Under the pieces are notes generated by a model. The model had not been told where the DNA came from. It made no database searches and saw only the letters and a list, made by a program, of their open reading frames with translations. From contig JBFYQP010000037.1 in assembly GCA_041302745.1 (NCBI GenBank), positions 1-47,069 of the forward strand: a stretch of DNA of 47,069 bases, read 5' to 3'. Made by a program: the position numbers and the translations under genes. Shown piece by piece: positions 9,116 to 45,456 of the stretch. The stretch's first letter is position 1. Each line of letters opens with the position of its first letter. The DNA comes from Candidatus Bipolaricaulota bacterium (GTDB taxonomy: Bacteria > Bipolaricaulota > Bipolaricaulia > UBA7950 > UBA9294).

Positions 9116-9126
9116 ACGGAGGAGTG

Positions 9127-12636: not shown

Positions 12637-12644
12637 CGCGCGGC

Positions 12645-31860: not shown

Positions 31861-31896
31861 GACGGGAGGCCCGCGCGGCCTCCCGTCTCCTTTCTC
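31861..31896. terminator. Strong bidirectional hairpin terminator at the boundary of the catabolic cluster
   Basis: GACGGGAGGCC-cgcgc-GGCCTCCCGTC is a perfect 11-bp stem (31861-31887), followed by TCCTTTCTC on the plus strand. It lies between two convergent stops (31832 and 31900). Confidence 0.6.
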
Positions 31897-31899: not shown

Positions 31900-32961
31900 T
31901 CAACTGTGCGAATGTCGGTGGTGCGCGTCCGGGGTGTGCGGGTGAGAGTGCTCGGACGGCGCGTGCGCGTGAGCATGCGAGTGCCTGTACGCGGCCCCCG
32001 CTCGCTCCGCCGCGTGCGAATGGGCGTGGTGCTCGTCGTGCACGTGAGCGTGCGTGTGAACGATCGGCTCGTGGGTGTGTCGGTGCGCGTGCCGTTCCCG
32101 CAGAAGAAGCACGAGGGCGAGGACCATCAGTGCGGCTCCCCCGTAGAACGACACGCGCGGCGCCTCGGGGAACAGGGCGAACGAGAGAATGGCGCCGGCG
32201 AACGGCGCGGCCGCGAAGACGGCGCCGGTCCTCGCCGTCCCTAGATTTCGCAGCGAGCGGACGAAGAGGGCGATGCTTGCCCCGTAGCATGCGGCGCCGA
32301 CCGCCAAGGCTGCGAGGGCGACGCCGTACGGCGGCAGCGGGCGGCCCAGGCCGACGGCGAGCCCGAGCGAGAAACTGCTGGCGACCAGCCCCTTGACGGT
32401 CGTGATCAATTTGGGGTCCCGGAGCGAGATCTGACGAGTGAGGTTGTTGTCGAGCCCCCAGAAGACGCAGGCGCCGAGAATGAGCAGAGCCCCCGGCGCG
32501 AAGCCCCAGCCTGCCGACGGATCGACGGAGAGGAGAGCGCCGCCGGCCGAGACGGCGGCCACGGCGGCCCACGTCCTGCCTCCGACCGCCTCGCGGAAGA
32601 GAGCGCCGGCGATCAGGGCCGTCGCGACGACCTCGAAGTTGAGAAGAAGGGATGCGGACGCCGCCTGCGTCGTCGTCAAGCCCAGGAGGAGGAGGATCGG
32701 TCCGGCCACTCCGCCCGCGACGACGGCGCCGGCAAGCCATGGAAGGTCCTGCCGTTCAAGCCCCGCCTCTCGATGCGTTGAAGCCCGGCCATTCGACGAC
32801 GGAGTGAGAGCACGCCACGCCAAAGCGAGGATTCCGAGGAAAGCGCCCGCGCCGAGGTAGAGGAGTCCCGCGAGGGCGATCGGGTCGACCTTCGCGAGGA
32901 GAACCTTGGAGAGCGGAGCGGAAATGCCGAACAGAAGGGCCGAGACGATTGCGTAGGCCAT
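31900..32961 (-). CDS. DMT/EamA-family permease with a histidine-rich C-terminal tail
   Basis: Two EamA-like halves (about 10 TM segments; FGISAPLSK, LGTARTGAVFAAAPFAG). The last 63 residues contain 23 His in HxH patterns. GAGGAGG SD, 19 nt after the stop of the XDH-family gene. Confidence 0.75.
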   Translation of the reverse strand: MAYAIVSALLFGISAPLSKVLLAKVDPIALAGLLYLGAGAFLGILALAWRALTPSSNGRASTHREAGLERQDLPWLAGAVVAGGVAGPILLLLGLTTTQAASASLLLNFEVVATALIAGALFREAVGGRTWAAVAAVSAGGALLSVDPSAGWGFAPGALLILGACVFWGLDNNLTRQISLRDPKLITTVKGLVASSFSLGLAVGLGRPLPPYGVALAALAVGAACYGASIALFVRSLRNLGTARTGAVFAAAPFAGAILSFALFPEAPRVSFYGGAALMVLALVLLLRERHAHRHTHEPIVHTHAHVHDEHHAHSHAAERAGAAYRHSHAHAHAPSEHSHPHTPDAHHRHSHS

Positions 32962-32980: not shown

Positions 32981-35248
32981 CTAGACCGGCGCCCTCAGCA
33001 ACTCCCGCACGTACGGCGGGTCGAGCGGGTAGCGGCTTGGGTCGCGCCCGATCGCATGGGCGACCGCGCGGGCGACGGCGGCGTGCGCCGCCATGAGAGG
33101 CACCTCGCCGATCCCCTTCATGCCGAACGGCCCGGCGGGAAACGCCGCCTCGACGAAGTCGACGCGGACGTCGAGCGGGACGTCGCGAATCGTCGGCATC
33201 CGGTACGTCGTCAGGCCGTTCACGACAAGGCGGCCGTCCTTCTGCGGAATGGACTCCGACAACGCGAACCCGAGACCCTGGGCGATTCCGCCCTCGACCT
33301 GTCCCGCGGCCAGCGCCCGATTGAGGATCGTGCCGGAGTCGTGGGCCGCCGCGAAATCGACGACGTGAGCCTCCCCCGTGGCGAGGTCGACCTCGACCTC
33401 GGCGACGTGTGTCGCGAACGCGTAGACCGGGTAGGCGTCACCGAGTCCGGTCTCGGGATCCCAGCTCACGGGCTCCGTCTTCGCCCACCCCTCGACGGCG
33501 GGGTCGACGTTGCGCACCCAGAAGGCCCGCGCGATGTCGCTCCAGCGTTCGGCAACCGCGGCGTCGGGGATTCCGAGCTGGCGCGCGACGGCTGCGACTC
33601 GCTCGCGAAGCTTGCGCGCCGCGTCGAGCACCGCGAGCGCGGCCATCATCGTCCCGCGCGACGCCACGGTCGGCCCGCCGTCCGGGACGCGAGACGTGTC
33701 GACCGGCGCGAGGTGGACGCGCTCCATCGGCACGCCGAGGGCCTCGGCCGCGACCTGAAGGACCGCCGTGGAGAGGCCCTGCCCCATCTCGACCGTTCCT
33801 ACGGCCACCGTGACCGAGCCGTCGGCCTCGAGTTTCATGGCAGCACCGGCCTTGTCGAGGGACGGCGCCTTGCCGCCCAATCCCACGCCGTAGAGAACGC
33901 AGGAGACTCCCAGGCCGCGGCGGCGATCCGTGTGTGTCCGGTTGAACGCCTCGACGCGGGAGAGCCGCGCCGCCCAGTCGGCAAGCTCCGCGGCACGGTC
34001 GAGCGTCTCTGCGATCCCCACGCTCGCTTCGACACGGTGATCGGTCGAGGTTCGGTCGCCGGGGCGCAGGACGTTGCGCCGTCGAACGTCGATGCGATCG
34101 AGTCCGAGGCGCTCCGCGATCCGATCCATCTGCGACTCGTGGGGGAAGATGACCTGGGGGCTCCCGAACCCGCGAAACGCCCCGTTGGGCACGGTGTTCG
34201 TCGCCACAGAACGCGCGACGACGTGCACGTTCGGAATCCGGTACGGTCCCGCGGCGGTCACCAGGCTTCGCCACAGGACGGCGGAGGATAGGGTTTGGTA
34301 GGCGCCGGCGTTGAGCACAACGTCGACGTCGATGGCCGTGATGGTGCCGTCGGCCTTCGCCCCCGTCCGGTAGCGCACACGGGCCGGATGCCGCTTGCTC
34401 GTCGTGAGCACGTCCTCTCCGCGTTCCAGGACGAGCTTCGCCGGTCGGCGCGTCGTCCACGCCACGAGGGCGGCGAGAGACGCGATCAGCGATGGGACGT
34501 CCTCCTTGCCTCCGAATGCCCCTCCCGTGGCTGTTTGGATCACGCGAACCTTGGCGAGCGGAAGGCCGAGGACCTTGGCGACCGCGCCCTGCACGTAGAA
34601 CGGGCACTGCATCGACGCGTAGACCGCGATCGATCCGGCTTCGTCGGGAACGGCGATCGCCCCCTGGGGCTCGAGGTAGGCGTGCTCCTGGTAGCCGGTC
34701 TCGTACTCCCCTTCGACGACGACATCCGCCTGCGTGAACCCCTCGTCGACGTTGCCCTTCGCGAGGACCATCCGATTGAAGACGTTGCCTCCGCCCTCGG
34801 CGGCCGCCGCCACGCAGACAATGGGTGCATCGGGCTCGACGGCCCGCCTCGTGTCGGTGACCGCGGGGAGCGGCTCGTACTCGACGCGCACCTCGAGCGC
34901 CGCCTTTCGGGCGGCGCGACGCGACGTCGCCCCAACCAGGGCCACCGGTTCGCCGATGTAGCGAACGACGCCGTCCGCGAGCGCAGGTTGATCGTCATAG
35001 ATCACGTGCACGGCGTTCGCGCCGGGGACGTCCCGTTGGGTCACGACGCAGTCGACGTCCGGATCGCCAAGCGCTTTGGAAGCGTCGATCGAGAGGACCT
35101 TGGCGTGCGGGTGGGGGCTGCGAACGACGGCGACGTGGAGCATGCCGGGGAAGGCGAGGTCGTCGACGTACCTCGCCTCACCCCGAACCTTGTCGACCGC
35201 GTCCGGTCGAGGAACGCTCGCGCCGATCAGCGTCGTTCGCTTCTCCAT
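32981..35248 (-). CDS. Xanthine dehydrogenase/aldehyde oxidase-family molybdopterin-binding subunit
   Basis: From M48 of the track ORF: MEKRTTLIGASVPRPDAVDKVRGEARYVDDL (a/b-hammerhead start), large Mo-binding domains, and a C-terminal KGIGEVPL catalytic-Glu motif. About 755 aa with no fused [2Fe-2S] or FAD domain. Confidence 0.85.
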   Translation of the reverse strand: MEKRTTLIGASVPRPDAVDKVRGEARYVDDLAFPGMLHVAVVRSPHPHAKVLSIDASKALGDPDVDCVVTQRDVPGANAVHVIYDDQPALADGVVRYIGEPVALVGATSRRAARKAALEVRVEYEPLPAVTDTRRAVEPDAPIVCVAAAAEGGGNVFNRMVLAKGNVDEGFTQADVVVEGEYETGYQEHAYLEPQGAIAVPDEAGSIAVYASMQCPFYVQGAVAKVLGLPLAKVRVIQTATGGAFGGKEDVPSLIASLAALVAWTTRRPAKLVLERGEDVLTTSKRHPARVRYRTGAKADGTITAIDVDVVLNAGAYQTLSSAVLWRSLVTAAGPYRIPNVHVVARSVATNTVPNGAFRGFGSPQVIFPHESQMDRIAERLGLDRIDVRRRNVLRPGDRTSTDHRVEASVGIAETLDRAAELADWAARLSRVEAFNRTHTDRRRGLGVSCVLYGVGLGGKAPSLDKAGAAMKLEADGSVTVAVGTVEMGQGLSTAVLQVAAEALGVPMERVHLAPVDTSRVPDGGPTVASRGTMMAALAVLDAARKLRERVAAVARQLGIPDAAVAERWSDIARAFWVRNVDPAVEGWAKTEPVSWDPETGLGDAYPVYAFATHVAEVEVDLATGEAHVVDFAAAHDSGTILNRALAAGQVEGGIAQGLGFALSESIPQKDGRLVVNGLTTYRMPTIRDVPLDVRVDFVEAAFPAGPFGMKGIGEVPLMAAHAAVARAVAHAIGRDPSRYPLDPPYVRELLRAPV

Positions 35249-35250: not shown

Positions 35251-36276
35251 CTAGAGACGACCTCCCATCGTCAGGGTGAGGATCGCCTTCTGCGTGTGCA
35301 GACGGTTCTCCGCCTGGTCGAGGATCCACGACAGCTTGTTGTCGCACACCTCGGCGTCCGCCTCGTTGCCGCGGTCGACGGGCATGCACTGGAGGAGGTA
35401 CCCGGGGTCGCCAAGTCTCTTCTGGCGCTCCGTCGAGTACTTCCAGTTCACGTACTTCTTTGCGATCTCGGCTTCCTTCTCCTTGCCGATCTCGTAGCGG
35501 TCTTTCGTGAACCAGTTGCGCGGGAAGACGACGGTCGCCCCGTCCAGTGCCTTGTCAAGATCGTGCGAGATCTCGAACGACCCGCCCGACGCCGACGCGA
35601 GGTCGCGACAGTCTTGCATGACCTTCGGGTCGAGGTCGTACTCGGGCGGGTTGGCGACGACGACATTCATGCCGTACAGGGACGAGATGAGCGCCGTTCC
35701 CTGCACCGAGCACCAGCCGCGGATCCACGGCGACCAGGCCCACATGATGACGATCTTCTTTCGTTTCACGTCGCCGTCGAGCTTCTCGTGCATCGTGTAG
35801 ATGTCGGTCAGCGACTGGCAGGGGTGGTTGATGTCCGAGGCCATGTTGATGATCGGCACGCGGCAGTGCTTGGCGAACTTCTGCATCACCTCGTCCGCCT
35901 CGCCGTAGTGGCGGATCTTGTCATCGAGGAGGCGAATGCCCACGCCGTCGCAATACCGCTCCATCGCCTCGGCGGTGTCCTTCACCGTCTCCCCGGCGCC
36001 CGGCTTGTCCTCGAGCGACAAGCGCGTCGTCTGCGGGTCGATGAACTGCGCGTGCCCGCCGAGCTGCGTCATCGCCGTCTCGAACGACATGCGCGTTCGC
36101 GTCGAGCCGGCGAAGAACATCATCGCGAACGTCTTGTACTCGAGCGTCGGGTGAGGAATGCGGCTGTAGTACGCGCCCTTCAGCTGGTCGGTGACCTTCA
36201 TCGCGATGTCGTATTCCTCGCGAGTCCAGTCGAGCTCGCTGATGAGGTCCCGTCCCGCGAGATCAAACCAACTCAT
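35251..36276 (-). CDS. YgeW-like carbamoyltransferase, divergent paralogue (QCMP instead of HCLP)
   Basis: Carbamoyl-phosphate motifs GSTRTRMSFETAMTQLGG and NHPCQSL. WAWSP...FPRNW is YgeW-like. There is no SMG ornithine loop. GAAGGAGG SD. Confidence 0.8.
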   Translation of the reverse strand: MSWFDLAGRDLISELDWTREEYDIAMKVTDQLKGAYYSRIPHPTLEYKTFAMMFFAGSTRTRMSFETAMTQLGGHAQFIDPQTTRLSLEDKPGAGETVKDTAEAMERYCDGVGIRLLDDKIRHYGEADEVMQKFAKHCRVPIINMASDINHPCQSLTDIYTMHEKLDGDVKRKKIVIMWAWSPWIRGWCSVQGTALISSLYGMNVVVANPPEYDLDPKVMQDCRDLASASGGSFEISHDLDKALDGATVVFPRNWFTKDRYEIGKEKEAEIAKKYVNWKYSTERQKRLGDPGYLLQCMPVDRGNEADAEVCDNKLSWILDQAENRLHTQKAILTLTMGGRL

Positions 36277-36393
36277 GAAACCTCCTTCGCAACGGCACGA
36301 GCCGCAGAGAGCGCAGGGGATTGGGGAGATCGCTCACGAACCGTGGACTCCATCTCGGCGTCCTCTGCGTCCTCTGCGGTGTGCTTCCCCGTT

Positions 36394-37431
36394 CTAGCCC
36401 ATGATGCAGGCCATCATCCCTTTCTGGCCGTGGAGGCGGTTCGCCGCCTGTTCGATGATCACGGAGTTCGGGCCGTCGATGACGTCGTCGGTGACCTCCA
36501 TGTCACGATCCGCGGGCAAGCAGTGCATGTAGATCGCGTTGTTCGTCAGCTTCATCTTCTCCGACGTCGTGATCCAATGCTTGTTCGCCTCGAAGACGGC
36601 CTTCGCCTTCTCCGCGTCCATCGGCGTCTTGCCGTCGGTCGCCTGGACCGTCCACGCCTTCGGGTACACGACGTCGGCGCCCTTGAAGGCTTGGTCCATG
36701 TCGTTCACGACCTTGAACGCCCCGCCGTGCCGCTTCGCGAGGTCCTTCGACGCCTGGAGCACCTTCGGGTCGAGGTCGAGGCCCTTCGGGTGCGCGAGGG
36801 TGACGTCCATGCCCATCGTCGACGCGGCGATGATGCAGCTCTGCGGCACCGCGAGCGGCTTCTCGACCGAGCCGGAGTACGCCCAGCTCATGACGAACTT
36901 CTTGCCCTGCAGGTTGTGGCCGAGCTTCTCCTGCATCGTCATGACGTCGGCCAGGTCCTGGCACGGGTGGTACATGTCGTCTTCCATGTTGATGACCGGG
37001 ACCTTGGACCACTCGGCGAACTCGCGGACGATCCGGTTCCCCTTTCCGTAGATCCAGTCGGTGTACTTGCCGTAGATGCGGATCGCGATGGCGTCGCCCA
37101 TCTCGGCCAGCACGCGGGCGACATCGCTGATGCGCTCCGTCGAGTAGGCCTTCTCATCGCCCTTGAGGGCCGGGGTGTACACGGCGCCGGGCTGCAGGAA
37201 GTGGGCGTGGCCGCCGAGCTGCGTCATGGCGGTCTCGAACGAGTTCCGCGTTCGCAGCGACGTGTTGTAGAACATCATGTGAAGCGTCTGCCCGTCGAGC
37301 ACCTTGTGGGGCTCGCGGCGGATGAACTTGCGCTTCAGGTCGTGCGCGGTGTCGAGCATGGCGTCGATCTCGTCGCGCGAAAACTCCAACCAGGTGATGA
37401 AATCTCGTCCTCGTAGCGTGGTGTTCGACAT
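36394..37431 (-). CDS. YgeW-type carbamoyltransferase (substrate unknown)
   Basis: TSLRTRNSFETAMTQLGG, YHPCQDL, MSWAYSGSVEKPLAVPQS...MDVTLAHPKGLDLDP, DVVYPKAWT and YMHCLPAD closely parallel E. coli YgeW as I recall its sequence. Confidence 0.85.
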   Translation of the reverse strand: MSNTTLRGRDFITWLEFSRDEIDAMLDTAHDLKRKFIRREPHKVLDGQTLHMMFYNTSLRTRNSFETAMTQLGGHAHFLQPGAVYTPALKGDEKAYSTERISDVARVLAEMGDAIAIRIYGKYTDWIYGKGNRIVREFAEWSKVPVINMEDDMYHPCQDLADVMTMQEKLGHNLQGKKFVMSWAYSGSVEKPLAVPQSCIIAASTMGMDVTLAHPKGLDLDPKVLQASKDLAKRHGGAFKVVNDMDQAFKGADVVYPKAWTVQATDGKTPMDAEKAKAVFEANKHWITTSEKMKLTNNAIYMHCLPADRDMEVTDDVIDGPNSVIIEQAANRLHGQKGMMACIMG

Positions 37432-37446: not shown

Positions 37447-38403
37447 CTACTCCCTCGTGATCGTGGTTCCCGCTTTGCCTTCCAGCGCGTCCGTCGCCTT
37501 GTCGAGCGACGTGATGATCGCCTTCTCGCCGCCCGACTCGATGAACCGGATGGCGGCGCGCACCTTGGGCTCCATCGAGCCCTTGGCGAAATGCCCTTCG
37601 GCGGCGTACTTCTTTGCCTCGGCCACCGTCATTCGGGCGAGGCTCGTCTCCTGCGGCGTCTTGTAGTGCAGCTTCACCTGGGCGACGTCGGTCAGGATCA
37701 TGAAGATCGAGGCCTTCACGTCGGCGGCGAGCCGCTCGCCGGCGAGGTCTTTGTCGATGACGGCGTCAACGCCCTTCAGCCCTCCGTTCTCGCGCAAGAC
37801 GGGGATCCCGCCGCCGCCGGAGGCGATGACGATCGTGCGGGCGTCGACGAGCTGGCGGATGGCCTCCTTCTCGAAGATCTCGACAGGGTCCGGGGACGCG
37901 ACGACGCGGCGCCACCCGCGGCCGGCGTCCTCTTTCACGTCGTAGCCCTTCTCCTTCTTCAGGCGGGCGGCCTCGTCTGCGCTGTAGAACGGGCCGACCG
38001 GCTTCGTCGGGTTGGCGAACGCGGGATCGGCCTTGTCGACGACGACCTGCGTGACGATCGTCGCGACCGGGATCGAGCCCTTTCCCTTCGCCGCGAGGAG
38101 GTTGATCAGGTTCTGCTGAATCATGTAGCCGATCAGCCCCTGGCTCTCCGCGCCACAGACGTAGAGAGGCATCGGTGCGGCGACCTCCTTGCCCACTTCG
38201 TTCTGGAGCAGGATGTTGCCGACCTGCGGGCCGTTCCCGTGGGTCACGACGATCTTGTACTTGCCCGAGTCCACCATGTGAGCGAGCTGCTCGCACGTGA
38301 TGTGGACGTTCTTCATTTGTTCTTCGAACGTTCCGCGCTGCCCCGGCTGAAGAATGGCGTTTCCGCCCAGGGCAACGACGACCAGCTTCTTCTCGACTTG
38401 CAT
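37447..38403 (-). CDS. arcC: Carbamate kinase
   Basis: KLVVVALGGNAILQPGQ, VVTHGNGPQVG and later carbamate-kinase blocks. 318 aa. Its stop lies 15 nt upstream of the carbamoyltransferase start. Confidence 0.9.
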   Translation of the reverse strand: MQVEKKLVVVALGGNAILQPGQRGTFEEQMKNVHITCEQLAHMVDSGKYKIVVTHGNGPQVGNILLQNEVGKEVAAPMPLYVCGAESQGLIGYMIQQNLINLLAAKGKGSIPVATIVTQVVVDKADPAFANPTKPVGPFYSADEAARLKKEKGYDVKEDAGRGWRRVVASPDPVEIFEKEAIRQLVDARTIVIASGGGGIPVLRENGGLKGVDAVIDKDLAGERLAADVKASIFMILTDVAQVKLHYKTPQETSLARMTVAEAKKYAAEGHFAKGSMEPKVRAAIRFIESGGEKAIITSLDKATDALEGKAGTTITRE

Positions 38404-38455: not shown

Positions 38456-39163
38456 CTACGCCTCCCAGATCTCCCGCATCCGCGTCCAATGCTCGACCAT
38501 CTTCGTGAACGCCGCGTCCTCGTCCTGGTCCTCGACAGCGTCGAGGATCTCCCGGTGCAGGTCGACGACGTGCTGCAGATCGCTCACGTTCTTCAAGTAG
38601 TAGTGCCGTGTGAACTCCCGGTAGACCCTCTGATCCATCGTGTCGATCAGCGGGACGAGGGCGGACCCCACGAGAGGGTTCCCCGCCGCGTCGGCCAGGG
38701 CGCGATGGAACGCCTTGTCGGCCGCGAAGTACGCGTCGAAGTCGTTCTCTCCGGCCCGGACACGCATCGTTTCGAGAATCTCGCGGAGCTGCTCGATCGC
38801 GGCCTCGTCCGACTTCTCGGCGGCCATCGCCGCCACGGGCGGCTCGAGGGCTTCGCGAGCCTCCATCACCTCGAGACAGCCGGCCTCGCTCTCAATCAGG
38901 TGGAGCGTGTTCGACTCGTCCGTTGTCGACGGCGCCCGCAGCACGTAGTTCCCGCTTCCGGGACGCGACTCGATGATCGCCATCGCTTGGAGAGCCGACA
39001 GCGCCTCGCGGATGGACGGTCGGCTCACGCCCATCTGCTCGGCCAGCTCAAACTCCGACGGAAGGCGGCTCCCCACGGGGAAATCGCCTCGGTGGATCGC
39101 GTCAACGATCTGCTCGGCGGCGATCGCCGAGACCTTCCGCGACTGCACCCTACTGAACCGCAT
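38456..39163 (-). CDS. GntR-family transcriptional regulator, FadR/FCD subfamily
   Basis: wHTH LPSEFELAEQMGVSRPSIREALSALQAMAIIESRPGSGNYV, followed by an all-helical FCD-like C-domain. The ATG at 39163 is preceded by AAGGAG; the track's GTG 39181 is less likely. Confidence 0.85.
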   Translation of the reverse strand: MRFSRVQSRKVSAIAAEQIVDAIHRGDFPVGSRLPSEFELAEQMGVSRPSIREALSALQAMAIIESRPGSGNYVLRAPSTTDESNTLHLIESEAGCLEVMEAREALEPPVAAMAAEKSDEAAIEQLREILETMRVRAGENDFDAYFAADKAFHRALADAAGNPLVGSALVPLIDTMDQRVYREFTRHYYLKNVSDLQHVVDLHREILDAVEDQDEDAAFTKMVEHWTRMREIWEA

Positions 39164-39274
39164 TGCCGTCTCCTTCTTCACTCGATCTTGTGTCGTTCCC
39201 TTCGATGATACCCCCGCTCGCGCGGGCAGACCCAGCCGGTGCGGCGCAGGGCCCTTGGGCGTAGGCCATTCGCC

Positions 39275-40384
39275 TCATGGGCGAGCCTCCTTCACGGGGA
39301 CGAGGCCTCCTCCCCTCTGCAGGAGGAGGGCCGCCGCGGGGCAGGACGAGGCACAGAGTCCGCATCCGCGGCAGTCCGCTTCGACGATCGTCTCTGCGCT
39401 TCGCCGTGCCCCGTACGGGCAGACGCGGACGCAGACTCCGCACTGCGTGCAGGCCGTGCGGCTCCAGGCGAATGTCCAACCCTCTCGAACCTGCGTTCCG
39501 TTCGAAGCGGCGACAAGTGCCGGGAGGCCCGCCCCCGTCGCTTCGCCCGGGCTCTGGAACCCCAGCGAGGCAAGGCGCGCCGACACGTCCCGAAGGAGGT
39601 CGCCGAAGACCGACACGCCGTGCAGCACGGGCGCCGTGCAGACTCCGACGGCGGTCGCCCCCGCGTAGAGCATCTCGAGGACATCGTCGGCGGTTTCGAC
39701 GCCCCCCGTCCCGATGATGGGGCATCCCGTTTCGCGCGCGATGTCGGCAACGACGCGGAGAGCGATGGGAAGGATCGGCCGTCCCGAGAGCCACCCGTAT
39801 CCTCCGAGCCGCGGGCGGCGCGAGGCGAGGTCGAAGCGCAGTGCCGGCCCGACGGAGTCAATGGCTGTGATGGCCGATGCGCCGTTCGCGAGGCACGCGC
39901 GGGCGGTCTCGACGACGCCCGGCGCGTTGGCGCTCACCTTCGCGAACACCGGCACGGAGGCGCGCCTCACCGCCTCCTCGACCATGCCGGGCACGGCCGA
40001 ACCGTCGTACGAGACGACCTCGAGCGCGCAGGCTCCTGCTTCGGCCAACGCGCCGGCGAGCGCGCGCACATCCTCGCGCGTCAGCCCCACGCTCGCGATC
40101 ACCACGGTCCCCGCCTGGCGGGCGCGCGGGATCTCCCGCTCGATCCACCGTTCGGGGGAGAGGTCGGACCAGCGTTCGGCGTTCAGGAGCCCGCCGCTCG
40201 ACCGCGCGATGTGCGGCACCGGGTTCACGGCCGCGCGCACGCCGATGGTCTTCGTGACGACGGCGCCGGCGCCGGCGCGGGTGGCGCGCGCGAGCGCGTC
40301 CCCGTCAAACGAGAGCGGGCCCGAGGCGAGCACGAAGGGCGTTCGGAGCTTCAGGCCGCACAGGTTCGTCGCAAGGTCGATCAT
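39275..40384 (-). CDS. PreA-like (DHODH/dihydropyrimidine dehydrogenase-fold) FMN protein with a C-terminal 2x[4Fe-4S] ferredoxin domain
   Basis: MIDLATNLCGLKLRTPFVLASGP, FAKVSAN and IIGTGGVETADDVLEMLYAGATAVGVCTA (FMN barrel). CTQCGVCVRVCP and CRGCGLCASSCP clusters. ATGA overlap with the upstream gene. Confidence 0.75.
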   Translation of the reverse strand: MIDLATNLCGLKLRTPFVLASGPLSFDGDALARATRAGAGAVVTKTIGVRAAVNPVPHIARSSGGLLNAERWSDLSPERWIEREIPRARQAGTVVIASVGLTREDVRALAGALAEAGACALEVVSYDGSAVPGMVEEAVRRASVPVFAKVSANAPGVVETARACLANGASAITAIDSVGPALRFDLASRRPRLGGYGWLSGRPILPIALRVVADIARETGCPIIGTGGVETADDVLEMLYAGATAVGVCTAPVLHGVSVFGDLLRDVSARLASLGFQSPGEATGAGLPALVAASNGTQVREGWTFAWSRTACTQCGVCVRVCPYGARRSAETIVEADCRGCGLCASSCPAAALLLQRGGGLVPVKEARP

Positions 40385-41700
40385 CGGCCCCCCTTCGTCC
40401 ACAGGCGGCGTGCCTGGGCGTGGGCCTCGCGGCGCGCGGCCTCAAGGTCGACGGCCAGGAGTTCGCCGTCCCTGAAGAGCACCCGTCCGTCGACGACCGT
40501 GAGAGCGACATCCGCCCCGGACCGGAACAGAACGAGCTGTTCGGCGACGTTCTCGGCCGTGAGGGGCGTGTCGAGGTCGAGGCGTACGCCGACCACGTCG
40601 GCGCGTCGCCCCGGCGCTAGGAGGCCCGCGTTGACGCCGACGGCGTCGGCGCCCCACGCCGTGGCCATGGCGAGCACCGTCCGTGCCGGCATGACTCGCG
40701 CGTCGCGTCGCACTCCCTTGTGGATGAGGAAGGCGGTGCGCATGACCTCGAACGGGTCGTTGATGTACCCGTCGGTGCCGAGGCCGGGGCGCATCCCGGC
40801 CTCGAGCATCTCGGGGATCGGGGCGACGCCTCCGCCGACCTCGCAGTTGCTCGCCGGCATGTGGGCGAGGCGCACCCGCCGCTTCGCCAGCACCGCGATC
40901 TCGTCTTCGTCGAGCGAGACGCCCTGCGAGGCGAGCACCGAGCTGTCCCAGAACCCCAGGCGGTCGTACCAGATCGCAGGCCGCACTCCGTATCGCTCGA
41001 GGGTGAACGACGGCTCGTAGTCGCTCTCGGAGAGATGAAGGTGGATGCGGACGCCCGACTCGACGGCGAGGGCCTTTCCTTCCCGCACGAACGCCTCCGA
41101 GCACGAGAACGACGTGTGCAGGCTCATCATCCCGGTCACGCGCCCCGTTCCGTGCGCGGCGGCGAATCCGGCGTTCTCGAACAGCGCCGCCCGCGCCGCG
41201 GCCTCGCCGTGGCGCTCGGACGCCTCGAGCGAAAGCACGGCGCGGATGCCCGTCTCCTCGGCGACGCGGGCCTCGACGTCGAGAACGCCGGACGCCGCGC
41301 GCGGCGCCTCGAGGACGTCGCACACGGTCGTGATGCCGAAGCGGATCATCCTCGCGCAGGCGAGGCGGAAGGCCGCCTCGACCATCGCGGCGTCGAGACG
41401 ATCTTCGACGCGCGGCCACCAGAACTCGGCGAGGAACGGGTAGAACCCGGCCGGCGGCTCCGCAAGGGGGATGCCGTGCGCCAGGATGCCGTAGGAGTGC
41501 ATGTGCGCGTTGACGAATCCCGGCATCAGGAGGAGGTCGCGCGCGTCGATCGTCTCGATCCCCGGCCGCGTTGCGGCGAGGGTCTCGTTGGGGCCGACGT
41601 CCGCGATCGCGCCGTCGACGATCCGCACGCCCCACCCCGTTTGCAGTAGAGCGTCGGCCGCCGTCAGCAGGGCTCCGCCGAGAAGGATCCGCTCAGTCAT
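40381..41700 (-). CDS. SsnA-like metal-dependent amidohydrolase (chlorohydrolase/deaminase superfamily)
   Basis: LLMPGFVNAHMHSYGILAHGI...FLAEFWWPRVEDRLD parallels E. coli SsnA (PGIVCSHNHFYSGLSRGI...LWWRLDRALD) as I recall it. HxH, later His residues and Asp (GTDGY) are present. Confidence 0.75.
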   Translation of the reverse strand: MTERILLGGALLTAADALLQTGWGVRIVDGAIADVGPNETLAATRPGIETIDARDLLLMPGFVNAHMHSYGILAHGIPLAEPPAGFYPFLAEFWWPRVEDRLDAAMVEAAFRLACARMIRFGITTVCDVLEAPRAASGVLDVEARVAEETGIRAVLSLEASERHGEAAARAALFENAGFAAAHGTGRVTGMMSLHTSFSCSEAFVREGKALAVESGVRIHLHLSESDYEPSFTLERYGVRPAIWYDRLGFWDSSVLASQGVSLDEDEIAVLAKRRVRLAHMPASNCEVGGGVAPIPEMLEAGMRPGLGTDGYINDPFEVMRTAFLIHKGVRRDARVMPARTVLAMATAWGADAVGVNAGLLAPGRRADVVGVRLDLDTPLTAENVAEQLVLFRSGADVALTVVDGRVLFRDGELLAVDLEAARREAHAQARRLWTKGGR

Positions 41701-43603
41701 GGCGCAGCGCCTCCAGCCGAGCGGCGACGTCGGGGAGCTCGAGGCGAAGGAGCGTGTCAGGCGTCGGCCAGCCGCGCTCGGCGTCCCACCCGCGGAGCGC
41801 GTAGTACTCGTCGAGCATCTCCTCGGCGTGGGCGATCTCGCCGCGCGCGCCCATCGACGGCGACGGCTCTTCTTTGAAGCGGCGCGGGAGCCGATCGTCG
41901 GCGCGCGTGATTCCGTGCACGGCGTTGTAGGCGCGCATCAGGTTGTAGATCCGCTCGCCGGTTTTCCGCAGGGCGTCGGGCGTCGTCTCGACCCCGGTCG
42001 CGTAGGTCAGGCCTTCCGCAAGGTCGGGCCAGTAGACCTCGGCCATCACGAACGTTCCGCCGGACTTGCAGACGCCGACGGAGTCAACGACGGCGCCGTA
42101 GTCCTCCCCATCCTTCACCAGGAACGGCTTGTGTTTGGTCGCGTGGGGGTCCGCCATCTCCGGCAGGAACGCGGCGCCGTAGCGTCGAGCGACCTCGTTG
42201 GGGCTCCCGGTCTCGTCGATCGTCGGGAACGCCTTCAGGTGGTCGGCGCCGCGGCTCGACGTGATGTGCGCGAGCCCCATCGACTGCTGGGCGCGGCCGT
42301 CCTGAGCGGGGATCTCGAGTCCCTTGACCTCCATGGCGTACTCCTCGGCGCCCCGGCCGATGCGGTGTGCCGCCTCGCGCACCCCGAGCGACAGGAGGTC
42401 GCCGAAACCCTCGCGGCGCGCAATGCGCTCGATCAGTTCGAGCATGACGTGGTAGTCGCCCCACCGCAGTTCTAGGCCGTCGGTGTCGGCCTTCGTCAGG
42501 AGCCCCTTCTCGAAGAGCTCGAACGCGAACGAGATCGATCGCCCGGCCGAGATGGTGTCCATTCCCAAGCGGTCGCACCGCTCGTTCGCGTGAAGGATGG
42601 ACGGGAGGTTGTCGTTTCCGACCGCGGCGCCGAACGCGTTCAGGGTCTCATACTCGAGACTGGACGTCACCGCTCCGGCAAACTCCCCGGACGTCACGTG
42701 GAAGACCTTGTCGCAGCGGATCGGACAGCCGAAGCACCCTGCGTCCTTCACCCAGTGGTTGCGGCGCAGGGCGTCGCCGGCGATGCGGTCCGCGGCCGCG
42801 AAGTCGCCCGACTGGAAGTTGCGCGTCGGGAACCGCCCGATCTCGTTCACGACGGAGACGAGGCCCGACGTTCCGTGCCGGGAGATCGACGGGTAGAACT
42901 CGTTTCTTCGGATCCGTTCGTGCATCGCCCGCGCGAGCCGGGTGAACTCCGTCGGAGAGGCGATCGGCACGGGACGCGAGCCGCGGACGGCGATCGCCTT
43001 CAGCCGCTTCGCGCCCATCACAGTGCCCACGCCCGTTCGGGCGAGGCTGCGGTTCGGTGAGGCCTGGATGGACGCGTAGCGAACGCCATTCTCCGCCGCG
43101 GGACCGACGCAGGCGACCATGACTCGGTCGTCGGCCTTCGCCCGCCGGATTGCGGCCTCCGTCTCGACCGTATCGAGCCCCCACAGGTCGGCGGCGTCCT
43201 CGAGCTTCGCGCGGCCGTCGTCGATCCAGAGCCACACGGGGCGGCTTGCCTGGCCGGTGAAGACGAGGAAGTCGTAGCCGCTCCGCTTCAGCTCCGGGCC
43301 GAACATACCGCCGCAGTTGGCGTCGCCGTAGATGCCGGTGAGGGGAGACTTTGCGATGGCTTCGAAGCGCCCGGAGGTCGGCCAGGCCGTGCCGCACAGG
43401 GGGCCGGACGCGAGGATCAGATCGCTCTCCGGCGAGAGCGCGTCGACGGCGGGCGGAACCTCGTCCCAAAGAATGCGGACGCCGAACCCGTTTCCCCCGA
43501 GGTAGCGGAGGCGGAGCTCCCGGGGCGTCTCGGCCGCGACGATCTCGCCGTTCGATAGATCGACTCGCAAGGACTGACCTGCGTAACCGCCGGTTCGGCT
43601 CAT
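41693..43603 (-). CDS. Aldehyde:ferredoxin oxidoreductase-family (tungsto/molybdopterin) enzyme, copy B
   Basis: From the internal MSRTGGYAGQSLRVDLSNG: 636 aa. AFOR_N pattern (LGGNGFG...ASGPLCGT), [4Fe-4S] ligands CFGCPIRC plus DSVGVCKSG, and SSRGADH. The 1023-aa track ORF is a run-on into the upstream gene. Confidence 0.85.
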   Translation of the reverse strand: MSRTGGYAGQSLRVDLSNGEIVAAETPRELRLRYLGGNGFGVRILWDEVPPAVDALSPESDLILASGPLCGTAWPTSGRFEAIAKSPLTGIYGDANCGGMFGPELKRSGYDFLVFTGQASRPVWLWIDDGRAKLEDAADLWGLDTVETEAAIRRAKADDRVMVACVGPAAENGVRYASIQASPNRSLARTGVGTVMGAKRLKAIAVRGSRPVPIASPTEFTRLARAMHERIRRNEFYPSISRHGTSGLVSVVNEIGRFPTRNFQSGDFAAADRIAGDALRRNHWVKDAGCFGCPIRCDKVFHVTSGEFAGAVTSSLEYETLNAFGAAVGNDNLPSILHANERCDRLGMDTISAGRSISFAFELFEKGLLTKADTDGLELRWGDYHVMLELIERIARREGFGDLLSLGVREAAHRIGRGAEEYAMEVKGLEIPAQDGRAQQSMGLAHITSSRGADHLKAFPTIDETGSPNEVARRYGAAFLPEMADPHATKHKPFLVKDGEDYGAVVDSVGVCKSGGTFVMAEVYWPDLAEGLTYATGVETTPDALRKTGERIYNLMRAYNAVHGITRADDRLPRRFKEEPSPSMGARGEIAHAEEMLDEYYALRGWDAERGWPTPDTLLRLELPDVAARLEALRHD

Positions 43604-45456
43604 CCTCGCCCTCCGACGTCGGCCAGCCACCGTTCGAGGCCCAGCCCTTGGAGGGTCTCCCGCGTCGGGATCCCGTTCGCGTCCCAGCCGCGCAGCGCGT
43701 AGTAGCGGGCGAGCATCTCGTCGAAGCCTTCGATGACGTGGAGCGTCGTCCGTCCGCCTCGCTCCACGGGCATCGGCTCCTCCGTGAATCGGCTCGGAAG
43801 CCGGTCGTCCTTGGACGACAACCCCAGACGGACATTGAACATCCGTTCGAGGTTGACGATGCGCTCCCCGGCGCGCAGGAGTTCGTCGCCCGTCGTCTCG
43901 ACGCCGAGCGCGCGGGCCCCGCGGGCAAGGTCCTCCGGGTGCAGCGGATGGGTCTCCACCGTGCTGAACTTGCAGACGCCGAGCGAGTCGGCCACGGCGC
44001 AGTAGTGCTCGCTGAAGACAACCAGGTCGGGCTTGTGGCGCTCGTCGCTCGGATCCATGACGTCCGGCAGGACGTGGGCCAGGTGCATGCGAGCGGCCTC
44101 CTCGAGCCCGGCGGTATCGATCGTCGGCAACGCGTAGAGATGGTCGGCGCCGCGGTTCGACGTCGCGTGCCCGAGGCCGAAGCTCTTCGCCACGCGGCCC
44201 TCCTGCGACGGGATCTCGAGGCCTTTGACCTCCATGGCGTACCGGGGGGCGTCGCCGCCCAGGGTCGCCGCGGCCGCACGCACGCCGGAAGCAAGGAGGT
44301 CGCCGATGCCGCTGCGCGAGGAGATCCGCCGGACGACCTCGACGACCGTCTCGGGGTCCCCCCACTCGAGCGACAGGGTCTCGTCGTCGAGCAGCCCGCG
44401 CTCGTGGCACTCCATGGCGAACGCGATCGCGGCCCCGGTCGACAGCGTGTCGAGGCCGAGCTCGTTGCAGAGCATGTTGGCGTAGAGGATGACTTCCGGA
44501 TCGGAGCAGTCGCACTGCGGCCCGAGGGAGTCGACGGTCTCGTACTCCGGCCCCGCCGTCGTGCAGGCGTAGGCCCCGCCGCGAACCGTCGAGATGCGGC
44601 CGCACCGGATCGGACAGCCCAAGCAGCCTTTGACCTCCGACTTGTAGGCCTCGAGGGCCTCGGCGTCGATCCGGTCGATGAACGCGACCTGGCCCCGCTG
44701 GTGGTTCTTTGCGGGCAGGTCGCCGATCTCGTTCTTGATCGCCGTCAAGAACGGCGTGCCCCATCGACTCAGGTTCTGGATGGACGGGGCCGAGAGCAGC
44801 CGCTCGGTTGCCCGCCGCGCCTCGGCGAGGAACGCTCTAGGCGCTCGATCGGGCGGGACCCTGTCGACGACGACGGCCTTCAGGTTCTTCGATCCGAACA
44901 CCGCGCCGCCCCCGGTGCGCGCCGCCGCGCGGCCGCCGTCGTTGATCACGGCGGCGAACCGGACGCCGTTCTCGCCCGCCGGGCCGATGCTCGCCACGGC
45001 GGCGTCTGGGTATCGCTCGTGCAGGGTCGCTTCGGTCTCCCGGGTCGTCTTTCCCCAGAGGTCGCCGGCCGGCCGGACGGCCACCGACCCGCGACCCACG
45101 AGGAGGTGAGTCGGCGTCTCGGCGCGCCCGCGCACGACGATCGCGTCGAAGCCGCACGCCGCGAGGAACGGGCCGAGCTTGCCGCCGGCGTTGGCATACC
45201 CGTAGCACCCCGTCAACGGCGATCGGAACGTGAGGTGGTAGCGCGAGGCGGCCGGCCACGGCGTGCCGGAGAAGAGCCCCGACGTGAGGATGAGGGCGCT
45301 CTCCGGATCGAGGGGGGCGATGCCGGGGGGCGCCAGGTCGTAGATCAGGCTGGCTCCGTATCCGCGCCCGCCGAGGAACTCGTCGAGCCGATCCCTCGGC
45401 GTGTCAACGATCTCGGTCGCGCCGAGAGAAAGGTCCACGTACGCTGTCTTCCGCAT
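43600..45456 (-). CDS. Aldehyde:ferredoxin oxidoreductase-family enzyme, copy A
   Basis: MRKTAYVDLSLGATEIV...LGGRGYG...TSGLFSGT, CLGCPIRC plus DSLGVCKFS, and SNRGADH. 618 aa. ATGA overlap with copy B. Confidence 0.85.
   Translation of the reverse strand: MRKTAYVDLSLGATEIVDTPRDRLDEFLGGRGYGASLIYDLAPPGIAPLDPESALILTSGLFSGTPWPAASRYHLTFRSPLTGCYGYANAGGKLGPFLAACGFDAIVVRGRAETPTHLLVGRGSVAVRPAGDLWGKTTRETEATLHERYPDAAVASIGPAGENGVRFAAVINDGGRAAARTGGGAVFGSKNLKAVVVDRVPPDRAPRAFLAEARRATERLLSAPSIQNLSRWGTPFLTAIKNEIGDLPAKNHQRGQVAFIDRIDAEALEAYKSEVKGCLGCPIRCGRISTVRGGAYACTTAGPEYETVDSLGPQCDCSDPEVILYANMLCNELGLDTLSTGAAIAFAMECHERGLLDDETLSLEWGDPETVVEVVRRISSRSGIGDLLASGVRAAAATLGGDAPRYAMEVKGLEIPSQEGRVAKSFGLGHATSNRGADHLYALPTIDTAGLEEAARMHLAHVLPDVMDPSDERHKPDLVVFSEHYCAVADSLGVCKFSTVETHPLHPEDLARGARALGVETTGDELLRAGERIVNLERMFNVRLGLSSKDDRLPSRFTEEPMPVERGGRTTLHVIEGFDEMLARYYALRGWDANGIPTRETLQGLGLERWLADVGGRG

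Follow-up and report, generated by a model that had tools for sequence, protein, structure and literature searches.

Anaerobic degradation of urate was worked out only in 2025, and the reductive uric-acid gene set comprises an Xdh-type molybdenum enzyme, a YgfK/UacX reductase, SsnA, HyuA, a carbamoyltransferase, a carbamate kinase, the amidase YgeY and the lyase YgeX, with an energy yield that depends on one YgeW/carbamate kinase step (PMC12507026; bioRxiv 10.1101/2025.04.24.650524). In E. coli, YgeW takes off one ureido group phosphorolytically and YgeY hydrolyses off the other; phosphorolysis of 2,3-diureidopropionate has been published for E. coli YgeW only. The regiochemistry of YgeW is disputed in the literature. 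The same logic, in which a ureido group is phosphorolysed to carbamoyl phosphate and ATP is formed by carbamate kinase, underlies the catabolic ornithine, putrescine and oxamate transcarbamylases (arginine deiminase, agmatine deiminase and allantoin fermentation), though their second substrates differ and the oxamate enzyme of E. coli is a member of a different, unrelated family (PMC11326118). Two different carbamoyltransferases have been described side by side, together with xdh and hyuA, in Nocardioides sp. JS614, where a subgroup 2 pseudo-ATCase adjoins a YgeW homologue (Barba et al. 2013, PMC4016543), and this arrangement was found in 21 Chloroflexota, Actinomycetota and other loci, usually with a carbamate kinase and without YgeY.

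The locus compared here lies on contig JBFYQP010000037.1 of Candidatus Bipolaricaulota bacterium (GCA_041302745.1), forward-strand positions 1 to 47,069, the whole of which is referred to as the window (Table 1). As in the YgeW/YqeA systems of E. coli and Clostridium, carbamoyltransferase genes sit beside a carbamate kinase gene (CK) among clustered genes of the Xdh, reductase, SsnA and HyuA types, but two enzymes (TC1 and TC2) occur here instead of one and the operon lacks the YgeY amidase and the YgeX lyase. Full-length open reading frames bear out a preliminary description that had placed two distinct carbamoyltransferases beside one carbamate kinase, and the two amidohydrolases it listed are also present (SsnA-like and HyuA-like).

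Table 1. Features of the minus-strand gene run and its two carbamoyltransferase genes (window coordinates).
Feature	Coordinates	Strand	Basis
GC-rich palindrome, 11 pairs, just downstream of EamA gene	31861..31887		Consensus scan
EamA-family transporter, final gene of minus-strand run	31900..32961	-	Pfam
Xanthine-dehydrogenase-type (Xdh) molybdopterin subunit, 755 aa	32981..35248	-	Pfam, NCBIfam
TC2, carbamoyltransferase, 341 aa	35251..36276	-	Pfam, NCBIfam, AlphaFold2, Foldseek
TC2 codons Q296-C297-M298-P299, HxLP-equivalent motif	35380..35391	-	
TC1, carbamoyltransferase, 345 aa	36394..37431	-	Pfam, NCBIfam, PDB sequence search, alignment, tree
TC1 codons S58-L59-R60-T61-R62, carbamoyl-phosphate-binding SxRTR motif	37246..37260	-	
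Carbamate kinase (CK), 318 aa	37447..38403	-	TIGR00746, BLASTP
Transcriptional regulator, GntR/FCD family	38456..39181	-	Pfam
PydA/UacX-like reductase, DHO_dh domain and two [4Fe-4S] motifs	39275..40402	-	Pfam, NCBIfam
SsnA-like amidohydrolase, 439 aa	40381..41700	-	Pfam, NCBIfam, BLASTP
Aldehyde:ferredoxin oxidoreductase family protein, copy a, ~636 aa	41693..43603	-	Pfam; length by comparison with L092
Aldehyde:ferredoxin oxidoreductase family protein, copy b, 618 aa	43600..45456	-	Pfam
HyuA-like D-hydantoinase/dihydropyrimidinase, ~459 aa	45605..46984	-	TIGR02033, BLASTP; length from L092/L093

CK matches TIGR00746 at 436 bits (cut-off 358; NCBIfam) and is 49% identical to E. coli YqeA (BLASTP), with TC1 directly downstream after a gap of 15 nt. 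The Xdh-type subunit, the ATG of which lies 3 nt past the TC2 stop codon, has no Fe-S or FAD domains in Pfam and NCBIfam searches. The HyuA-like hydantoinase passes TIGR02033 (395 bits, cut-off 393) and is 38% identical to E. coli HyuA (BLASTP), while the SsnA-like amidohydrolase scores below the SsnA model (230 bits, cut-off 444; NCBIfam), shares 26% identity with E. coli SsnA (BLASTP) and has a chlorohydrolase model as its top family match. The PydA/UacX-like reductase corresponds to the "X1" dehydrogenase of Barba 2013 (PMC4016543; for UacX, PMC12507026) and is a candidate for reductive dearomatisation of the purine. Copy b of the aldehyde:ferredoxin oxidoreductases has P. furiosus AOR (1aor, 390 bits) as its top PDB match. 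A GntR/FCD regulator occupies the matching position in five related loci (L002, L005, L007, L008, L014), and the palindrome downstream of the EamA gene is a possible operon terminator, from a scan with a count not above shuffled expectation. A search of the operon and of 2-3 kb past the end of the window turned up no M20/YgeY gene. What becomes of diaminopropionate would depend on an uncharacterised PLP enzyme encoded immediately beyond the window. With an Xdh subunit, a UacX-like reductase, a HyuA-like hydantoinase, CK and carbamoyltransferases all present, and a divergent SsnA-like protein, the operon probably represents a variant form of the gene cluster for the reductive uric-acid (2,8-dioxopurine) pathway, and these components match the published enzyme set (PMC12507026; bioRxiv 10.1101/2025.04.24.650524). 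Because the SsnA-like protein is divergent, the degraded heterocycle may be other than urate.

Both carbamoyltransferases are very probably catabolic enzymes of this purine cluster that feed the kinase. A more specific proposal, to which we give somewhat less than an even chance, is that, in a Bipolaricaulota variant of the pathway, 2,3-diureidopropionate loses both of its ureido groups by phosphorolysis through TC1 and TC2. Urate would be dehydroxylated by the Xdh-type molybdenum enzyme, its ring reduced by the UacX-like flavin/Fe-S reductase, the six-membered ring opened by the SsnA-like hydrolase and the five-membered ring opened by the HyuA-like hydantoinase to give 2,3-diureidopropionate. 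Without YgeY, both ureido groups would then be phosphorolysed, one by TC1 and one by TC2, each yielding carbamoyl phosphate from which the adjacent CK would form ATP, for up to two ATP per purine. The proposal is based on gene content and order, including the conserved order CK-TC1-TC2-Xdh, on intact carbamoyl-phosphate-binding residues, on purifying selection, on differing second-substrate residues and on the near-exclusivity between YgeY and a second carbamoyltransferase in related clusters; the substrates, and which enzyme would handle which ureido group, are inferred.

YgeY and a second carbamoyltransferase hardly ever share a locus. Of 58 species-representative loci that carry a TC1-like gene and extend far enough upstream, 22 have YgeY only, 21 a second carbamoyltransferase only, one both and 14 neither (Fisher p = 1.6e-5, shared ancestry ignored), and the state switches between sister leaves of the tree (e.g., L051/L052). 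The second carbamoyltransferase of these loci is the pseudo-ATCase, not TC2, and belongs to the ATCase branch (STRT/HPTQ/HSLP), whereas that of the window is a YgeW-lineage paralogue. Every related Bipolaricaulota-type locus that spans CK-TC1-TC2 keeps the three genes contiguous (L002-L005, L007-L009, L012, L014), and TC2 is followed by Xdh in L001, L002 and L005-L009. In L003, the genes that precede the TC1/TC2 pair encode an F420 reductase, two PLP enzymes and a true SsnA (36% identity to the E. coli protein). Three related Bipolaricaulota lineages (L005-L009, L012, L014) carry an ArgE/DapE-type M20 hydrolase, just 24% identical to YgeY, together with TC1 and TC2, so the second carbamoyltransferase is not always a simple replacement of the amidase. 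Beyond the Bipolaricaulota, TC2 was found in two MAGs, L015 (Thorarchaeota) and L017 (an unclassified bacterium). Most TC1-clade loci of sufficient length place TC1 next to a carbamate kinase; solo TC1-clade genes also occur in other contexts, for instance within an ABC-transporter operon (L063).

These distributions bear on an alternative that is unlikely but deserves weight, in which one carbamoyltransferase acts on purine-derived diureidopropionate and its partner serves another branch by phosphorolysing some other carbamoyl compound, such as N-carbamoyl-beta-alanine from uracil (through the operon's PydA-like reductase and dihydropyrimidinase-like hydrolase) or the product of an unknown Xdh/AFOR substrate. 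The reductase is related to PydA/PreA, and TIGR02033 accepts the hydrolase, the pair corresponding to the first two enzymes of reductive pyrimidine degradation, and both the M20 hydrolase kept beside TC1 and TC2 in some relatives and the solo TC1-clade genes are compatible with separate roles. The PydA-like gene, however, was found only in this window's lineage, while the core CK-TC1-TC2, shared across lineages and with Xdh next to it in several, occurs alongside SsnA/HyuA-type genes, and the exclusivity between YgeY and a second carbamoyltransferase points to one shared pathway step.

TC1 and TC2 are 38.5% identical to each other, each with OTCace_N and OTCace domains (Pfam, E 1e-27 to 1e-41) and transcarbamylase superfamily scores (PF02729 and PF00185) of 94-140 bits against cut-offs of ~30. 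The shared blocks reported in the preliminary description, including WA(Y/W)S and (Y/F)P(K/R)xW, were recovered by regular expressions from both translations, with SLRTR (aa 58), SFETAMTQLGGHA, HPCQ, WAYS, YPKAW and HCLP in TC1 and STRTR, SFETAMTQLGGHA, HPCQ, WAWS, FPRNW and QCMP (aa 296) in TC2; the conserved strand beta-4 arginine is R118 in TC1 and R115 in TC2. The same searches found neither the DxxxSMG motif of OTCases nor the RxQxER and HPLP motifs of ATCases in either protein, as had been stated for DxxxSMG and HPLPR. SLRTR had been taken as a substitution that alters a carbamoyl-phosphate contact, but it is invariant in the TC1 clade (13/13) and in alignments A2/A3, and variants of this motif are known as S[LT]RT in OTCases/YTCases and S[LM]RT in AOTCase/SOTCase (PMC4016543 Table 1; PMC4581275 Table 1), where AOTCase reads S49-M50-R51-T52 and SOTCase S47-L48-R49-T50 (PMC4581275 Table 1). 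It is thus an ordinary variant and the clade norm, not a lesion. QCMP had been read correctly in TC2, but the oddity implied for it is not supported, with Q in 73 (QCMP) and H in 36 (HCMP) of 120 orthologues at the start of a motif in which C-M-P is fixed, and the side chain of the HxLP histidine reported to make no substrate contact (PMC4581275).

The residues that bind carbamoyl phosphate are intact in both enzymes. S58, T59, R60, T61, R62, R115, H151, P152, C153, Q154, M298, P299 and R325 of TC2 are invariant over 18 orthologues (alignment A1), and the carbamoyl-phosphate residues of TC1 are likewise invariant (alignments A2/A3). Orthologues number 120 for TC1 (76-93% identity) and 120 full-length for TC2 (61-92% identity), and both genes are under purifying selection (dN/dS 0.09-0.29 overall; TC1 0.09-0.14, TC2 0.10-0.29, compared to 0.17-0.19 for CK). 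The second-substrate pockets differ. At the site of AOTCase E144 and YgeW Q160, the YgeW-type clade has Q, TC1 has E and TC2 has A, and at the site of AOTCase K252 and YgeW K270, TC1 has K and TC2 has R; the proline-rich loop of TC1 is YgeW-like (SGSVEKPLAVPQ), and the corresponding region of TC2 has a single proline (WSPWIRGWCSVQ). Such a loop, an extended 120's loop and a trefoil knot in the fold mark the knotted transcarbamylases (the group of AOTCase, SOTCase and YTCase). The earlier idea that two catabolic enzymes with different pockets phosphorolyse two N-carbamoyl intermediates for ATP thereby gains support in its core from operon content, selection, pocket residues and YgeY exclusivity, though not the weight it had placed on SLRTR and QCMP. 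As a guess, TC1 would act on the ureido group of YgeW, because it keeps the YgeW/AOTCase-type lysine and the S..K of the proline-rich loop, and TC2, with its remodelled pocket rich in Ala, Arg and Trp, might take the remaining mono-ureido-diaminopropionate. TC1 departs from the YgeW-type clade at Q160, so it is uncertain that it is the paralogue isofunctional with YgeW. The candidate substrates named earlier had included carbamoyl-diaminopropionate-type compounds, as the 2025 pathway papers would predict.

The same residues make it improbable that TC1 and TC2 form one hetero-oligomeric enzyme in which one paralogue is mainly structural or regulatory for a single activity. Such an arrangement would fit two genes of similar length that are adjacent and co-inherited in Bipolaricaulota-type loci with both intact, in a family in which each active site of the trimer borrows the 80's loop of its neighbouring subunit (PMC4581275). 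Each enzyme nevertheless keeps a full set of carbamoyl-phosphate-binding residues under purifying selection, and L001 has TC2 but no TC1. In other phyla, the second enzyme is ATCase-type and too distant to co-trimerise with a YgeW-lineage protein, so the recurring pattern is one of two enzymes.

Family placement addresses a third possibility, and a very remote one, that TC1 is a biosynthetic N-acetyl- or N-succinyl-ornithine carbamoyltransferase lying beside a catabolic enzyme by chance. TC1 passes the AOTCase model NF003384 (320 bits, cut-off 288), which TC2 fails (220 bits), and its closest solved relative is X. campestris AOTCase (236 bits, PDB sequence search); that of TC2 is P. furiosus OTCase, with AOTCase second. 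Both proteins resemble AOTCase (X. campestris) and SOTCase (B. fragilis) in length, in extended 80's and 120's loops and in HPCQ, and TC1 shares with them an S[LM]RT form of the phosphate motif and has equivalents of AOTCase E144 and K252, which TC2 lacks. At the three discriminating positions, the T/P/E of TC1 fits the SOTCase pattern [ASPVQ]/P/[VIE] at two; SOTCase is further marked by the succinyl-binding residues H176, R178 and R278. Against this, the AOTCase specificity residues Glu92, Asn185 and Lys302 and Trp77 of the 80's loop (PMC4581275) are all missing from TC1, with the triad replaced by T98/P192/E312 and Trp77 by a Thr preceded by an invariant Tyr. In a neighbour-joining tree (200 bootstraps; two or three AOTCase-type references, none of them SOTCase), YgeW, TC1-like proteins and TC1 form a clade (89.5%) that TC2 joins as a small sister clade (91.5%), with AOTCase outside and TC1 grouping with AOTCase in 0/200 bootstraps. 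None of the loci examined has arg genes in the neighbourhood of TC1 or another member of its clade, the context being catabolic and in most clade loci including a carbamate kinase neighbour, and in the complete genome CP070725.1 TC1 has shrunk to an 88-codon remnant. These results indicate that NF003384 over-calls TC1. NCBI annotates TC1 orthologues as N-acetylornithine carbamoyltransferase, and the public annotation of hundreds of such genes as N-acetylornithine/ornithine carbamoyltransferase appears to be wrong.

The resemblance to YgeW, asserted earlier as YgeW-type like E. coli YgeW, is upheld in part, by the tree grouping (~90% bootstrap for the shared lineage) and the catabolic context, and TC1 has the WAYS..S..KPL..VPQ proline-rich loop and YPK.W lysine in common with it. 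In YgeW the 80's loop is short, includes Gln98 and has no Trp, and the second-substrate site contains Q160 and K270. By alignment, TC1 and TC2 (35% and 28% identical to E. coli YgeW) are ~50 residues shorter, with no extra helix at either the N or the C terminus, no 130s insertion and no long 240's loop, that of TC1 being just slightly longer than that of AOTCase; their 80's loops are longer and AOTCase-like. Neither protein reaches the YgeW equivalog models NF005538/TIGR03316 (TC1 178/167 bits, TC2 107/103 bits; cut-offs 453/500), and both score below the NCBIfam models for OTCase, PTCase (188-213 bits, cut-off 500) and ATCase, leaving TC2 below all curated family cut-offs. "YgeW-type" is therefore apt for TC1 and TC2 in the broad sense only, as members of the YgeW lineage in the tree. 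The AlphaFold2 model of TC2 (pLDDT 82.8) gives Foldseek TM-scores of 0.83-0.85 against AOTCase, equal to those against P. furiosus OTCase.

Misregistered motifs or a decaying copy, which the preliminary description had itself considered, find no support in the correctly read QCMP and the selection on both genes, and a reading of one gene, TC2 being the likelier, as a dead duplicate in decay is largely refuted and scarcely credible, since the replaced HxLP histidine, the failed family cut-offs and the visibly decayed cluster of L001 are outweighed by 120 full-length orthologues at 61-92% identity, dN/dS of 0.10-0.29, invariance of the remaining carbamoyl-phosphate residues, alternation of Q and H within an otherwise conserved motif, NCLP variants known among other family members (PMC4581275) and a strong ribosome-binding site (Shine-Dalgarno-like GAAGGAGG 6 nt 5' of the TC2 ATG).

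Two carbamoyltransferases in the purine cluster suggest that ATP is gained from both ureido groups, compared to one in E. coli. It is possible, though somewhat less likely than not, that these loci represent a high-yield form of the reductive purine pathway, unrecognised so far, in which both ureido groups are phosphorolysed to two carbamoyl phosphates and two ATP per purine, and which evolved on two or more occasions when a second carbamoyltransferase was recruited and took over from YgeY, namely TC2 (Bipolaricaulota, L015 and L017) and the pseudo-ATCase (Chloroflexota and Actinomycetota). If so, TC2 and the pseudo-ATCase would share a new activity, that of a mono-ureido-diaminopropionate carbamoyltransferase, one or two new substrate specificities would be added to the transcarbamylase family, and comparison of the enzyme pairs, as a natural experiment, could resolve in which order YgeW cleaves the ureido groups, a disputed point. 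The two-transferase module would also be an option for engineers of uricolytic probiotics. With two phosphorolytic steps, purines would support twice as much substrate-level phosphorylation, which would help to explain how energy-limited subsurface Bipolaricaulota and Chloroflexota live on nucleobases.

The two carbamoyltransferase genes of the window, TC1 and TC2, lie in a minus-strand operon that runs from a HyuA-like hydantoinase gene through two aldehyde:ferredoxin oxidoreductase (AFOR) family genes, an SsnA-like amidohydrolase, a PydA/UacX-type protein, a GntR/FCD regulator, and a carbamate kinase (CK) to TC1, TC2, an Xdh-type molybdopterin subunit, and an EamA transporter. The G+C content of the window, from a member of the Candidatus Bipolaricaulota (the former Acetothermia), is about 68%. 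CK is directly upstream of TC1 with a gap of 15 nt, TC2 is preceded by a strong Shine-Dalgarno sequence, and the ATG of the Xdh subunit lies 3 nt past the TC2 stop codon. The remaining genes in the window are housekeeping genes, and a scan of the window for promoters and terminators gave no excess over the shuffled expectation. On contigs with an identical AFOR gene, a divergently transcribed PLP enzyme of ~492 aa occurs just past the window end, and no M20 peptidase was present in the 2-3 kb past that end.

Genes of the minus-strand operon, in order of transcription, and the PLP enzyme in related loci from other genomes (L numbers)
Feature	Coordinates	Strand	Remarks
HyuA-like hydantoinase	45605-46984	-	passes TIGR02033; 38% identity to EcHyuA
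AFOR-family genes, two	43600-45456; 41693-43603	-	domain annotation; tandem, spanning 41693-45456
SsnA-like amidohydrolase	40381-41700	-	26% identity to EcSsnA
PydA/UacX-type protein	39275-40402	-	DHO_dh + 2x[4Fe-4S]
GntR/FCD regulator	38456-39181	-	
Carbamate kinase (CK)	37447-38403	-	TIGR00746, 436 bits (cut-off 358); 49% identity to E. coli YqeA
TC1	36394-37431	-	345 aa; both aspartate/ornithine carbamoyltransferase domains
TC2	35251-36276	-	341 aa; both aspartate/ornithine carbamoyltransferase domains
Xdh-type molybdopterin subunit	32981-35248	-	755 aa
EamA transporter	31900-32961	-	
PLP enzyme	L008:4454-5923; L002:5204-6664; L003:7498-8964; L092:45-1526		L092: just past window end

In the reductive uric-acid pathway set out in two 2025 studies, XdhD converts urate to 2,8-dioxopurine, the ring is reduced by YgfK, or by UacX in Clostridia, and SsnA then HyuA open both rings to give 2,3-diureidopropionate; one ureido group is phosphorolysed by YgeW, with YqeA converting the carbamoyl phosphate to ATP, the other is hydrolysed by the M20 amidase YgeY, and YgeX converts diaminopropionate to pyruvate (PMC12507026; bioRxiv 10.1101/2025.04.24.650524). 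The target ureido group of YgeW is disputed in the literature, with the 3-ureido group cleaved first in bioRxiv 10.1101/2025.04.24.650524. The window operon possesses homologues for every step up to diureidopropionate, then two carbamoyltransferases and CK, and no YgeY or YgeX gene is present in it. No paper describing either this cluster in the Bipolaricaulota or a version of the pathway with two carbamoyltransferases was found in a literature search.

Several of the upstream components have distinct features. The Xdh-type protein consists of a hammerhead and two molybdopterin-binding domains only, its identity to E. coli XdhA (33%) slightly exceeds that to XdhD (29%), and no gene for a [2Fe-2S] or FAD subunit was seen in the annotated parts of the window. 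The SsnA-like amidohydrolase is divergent, with an N-ethylammeline chlorohydrolase model as its best NCBIfam match, and the same divergent type is also found as a second amidohydrolase beside a true SsnA in several Chloroflexota clusters. The tandem AFOR genes, which belong to a tungstopterin family, lie between the HyuA-like and SsnA-like genes; they were absent from all 89 other related loci examined and occur in L092-L095, loci fetched with the AFOR protein itself. BamB-like dearomatising chemistry was rejected for the AFOR pair on the strength of copy b (43600-45456), which matches benzoyl-CoA reductase BamB at 186 bits over the N-terminal third only, against 390 bits to its best match, the canonical P. 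furiosus AOR. One possibility is that the AFOR pair supplies reduced ferredoxin to the Xdh and UacX-like enzymes.

TC1 and TC2 share 38.5% identity, with carbamoyltransferase domains detected in both at E-values of 1e-27 to 1e-41. All of the motifs quoted in the preliminary description are present as read in the translations, and both proteins lack DxxxSMG and HPLP, as it had stated, as well as RxQxER. Its label of "YgeW-type" applies at the level of the broad lineage (see the tree below), but both proteins fail the YgeW family models and are without the YgeW insertions. The YgeW equivalog scores were 178/167 bits for TC1 and 107/103 bits for TC2 (cut-offs, 453/500), while the NCBI model for N-acetylornithine carbamoyltransferase (AOTCase), NF003384, accepts TC1 (320 bits; cut-off, 288). 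Among proteins of solved structure, TC1 is nearest to the X. campestris AOTCase (236 bits; YgeW, 156 bits) and TC2 to the P. furiosus OTCase (186 bits; YgeW, 91 bits). A Foldseek comparison of the predicted TC2 model indicated a generic transcarbamylase fold, equally close to P. furiosus OTCase and AOTCase (TM 0.83-0.85). TC1 and TC2 were aligned with EcYgeW, XcAOTCase, two OTCases, and EcPyrB. Both keep the ENRLH arginine, both have 80's and 120's loops extended as in the AOTCase and N-succinylornithine carbamoyltransferase (SOTCase) group, and in both the terminal helices, 130s insertion, and long 240's loop of YgeW are missing.

The conflict among model scores was resolved with a neighbour-joining tree of 124 sequences, among them few AOTCase/SOTCase references, and a subset of 37 taxa was bootstrapped 200 times (Kimura-corrected p-distances). 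E. coli YgeW is nested in a large TC1-like clade from uricolytic clusters (bootstrap 100%), which is joined by the TC1 clade at 89.5% and by TC2 at 91.5%, with AOTCase outside. Phylogenetically, TC1 and TC2 are thus placed in a broadly defined YgeW lineage, of which E. coli YgeW is a derived, insertion-rich member. The identification of TC1 as an AOTCase, suggested by NF003384, was rejected because the AOTCase-defining residues W77, E92, N185, and K302 (PMC4581275) are replaced by T, T, P, and E, because TC1 groups with YgeW, and because it lies near arginine genes in none of the loci examined; no arginine-biosynthesis genes surround the solo TC1-clade genes (L063, L032, L015). The AOTCase name on TC1 is, from these comparisons, most likely an over-call. 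The listed TC1 orthologues (P0121-P0240) are named "N-acetylornithine carbamoyltransferase" as a result of acceptance by NF003384, likely a systematic misannotation.

The SLRTR of TC1 had been taken for an unusual substitution and proved to be ordinary: motif tables for OTCases, AOTCase/SOTCase, and YgeW enzymes (YTCases) give S[LT]RT or S[LM]RT (PMC4016543; PMC4581275), the carbamoyl-phosphate-site residues include M50 in AOTCase and L48 in SOTCase (PMC4581275), and SLRTR is invariant across the TC1 clade. The QCMP of TC2 is a genuine departure from HxLP, but its first residue is variable (of 120 listed orthologues, 73 have Q and 36 have H), with C-M-P fixed; HxLP side chains are reported to make no substrate contact, and NCLP variants exist (PMC4581275). 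Differences in the second-substrate site are more informative. Where AOTCase has E144 and YgeW Q160, Q is found in the YgeW-type clade, E in TC1, and A (A146) in TC2; the equivalent of K252/K270 is a lysine in TC1 and an arginine, R253, in TC2; and the "proline-rich" loop is Trp-rich instead in TC2.

Neither copy is decaying, a prospect that the preliminary description had raised. Each has at least 120 full-length orthologues (76-93% identity for TC1; 61-92% for TC2), the carbamoyl-phosphate-binding residues are all invariant in both orthologue alignments, and dN/dS is low in comparisons with three or four relatives (TC1, 0.09-0.14; TC2, 0.10-0.29; CK, 0.17-0.19). The TC2 clade is small, with ~seven 50%-identity clusters at ≥40% identity among the 1.8 billion sequences of the library searched, and TC2 with a TC1-clade partner also occurs in two MAGs, one from Thorarchaeota (L015) and one from an unclassified bacterium (L017). 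The latter (8938-14163) carries, in this order, TC1-clade, TC2-clade, CK, PLP enzyme, and ArgI-like OTCase genes, that is, three carbamoyltransferases and one CK.

CK, TC1, and TC2 are contiguous in every related locus that spans them (L002-L005, L007-L009, L012, L014); in L001, L002, and L005-L009 the gene after TC2 is Xdh. L002 additionally possesses a HyuA-like gene and a 486-aa PLP enzyme, and L003 possesses a true SsnA (36% to EcSsnA), two PLP enzymes, CK, TC1, TC2, and an F420-dependent luciferase-like reductase matching the "Chloroflexota variant" reductase of PMC12507026. In three lineages an ArgE/DapE-type M20 hydrolase (24% identity to YgeY) lies between the regulator and CK. The cluster is eroded in L001 (CP070725.1, a closed 1.73-Mb Bipolaricaulota genome; 9615-12820), where TC2 is intact, TC1 is reduced to its last 88 codons adjoining an Omp85 gene, Xdh is truncated to 568 aa, and no carbamate kinase is present in the cluster. 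A fold-type-II PLP enzyme of ~486-493 aa, which scores 70 bits to cysteine synthases and falls under all NCBIfam cut-offs, is found beside carbamoyltransferase/kinase genes in >25 uricolytic-type clusters, and a ThrC-like PLP enzyme of ~418 aa is as common. YgeX is rare in clusters with the ~486-493-aa enzyme, and one or both PLP enzymes may replace diaminopropionate ammonia-lyase.

Genome contigs were searched with the TC2 alignment, the patterns DQAENRLH and MTQLGGHA being common to TC1-like proteins. About five true TC2 loci were among the matches listed. Outside the Bipolaricaulota-type set, at least 68 species-representative loci carry a TC1-like gene; they span Chloroflexota, Actinomycetota, Woeseiaceae, Ignavibacteria, Marinimicrobia, Bacilli, and other groups. 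In most of these loci, genes for SsnA, HyuA, Xdh, a YgfK/UacX/F420 reductase, CK, and two PLP enzymes lie nearby. The TC1-like gene is immediately preceded by either a YgeY-type amidase or a PyrB-like STRT/HPTQ/HSLP protein, the latter corresponding to the pseudo-ATCase noted beside a YgeW homologue in Nocardioides (Barba et al., PMC4016543). In the pseudo-ATCase loci (Chloroflexota, Actinomycetota, and others; L020, L024, L031, L038, L040, L042, L043, L045, L047, L049-L051, L054, L055, L057, L058, L060-L062, L067, L071), CK is usual and a YgeY-type amidase almost never present. Among the 58 listed loci with enough upstream sequence, 22 have YgeY only, 21 a second carbamoyltransferase only, one has both, and 14 have neither (Fisher's exact p = 1.6e-5 for exclusivity, kinship ignored). 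CK occurs within 4 kb in 17 of the 21 two-transferase loci versus 9 of the 22 YgeY loci, and the two states swap between sister leaves of the TC1-like tree (e.g., L051 and L052). Of the indirect evidence that the role of the YgeY amidase could be filled by a second carbamoyltransferase, this exclusivity and alternation are the strongest.

Judging by homology, the window operon would follow the published pathway up to diureidopropionate. TC1 is favoured as the YgeW equivalent because it keeps the YgeW-loop Lys and S..K, and the remodelled pocket of TC2 leads us to guess that it would act on the mono-ureido product. The weak points of this proposal are the divergent SsnA-like protein, the replacement of YgeX by a PLP enzyme, the M20 hydrolase kept in some relatives, and the departure of TC1 from the YgeW-type clade at Q160. 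From chemical reasoning, N-alpha-carbamoyl-diaminopropionate resembles a shortened N-acetylornithine and an ATCase-type enzyme would be expected for the alpha-ureido group, which would fit the preprint order of cleavage, 3-ureido first. The preliminary idea that two N-carbamoyl intermediates are phosphorolysed for ATP was broadly right, built on a real, partly over-read observation and now tied to a recently described pathway: TC1 and TC2 would each phosphorolyse one ureido group of diureidopropionate, and CK would harvest both carbamoyl phosphates.
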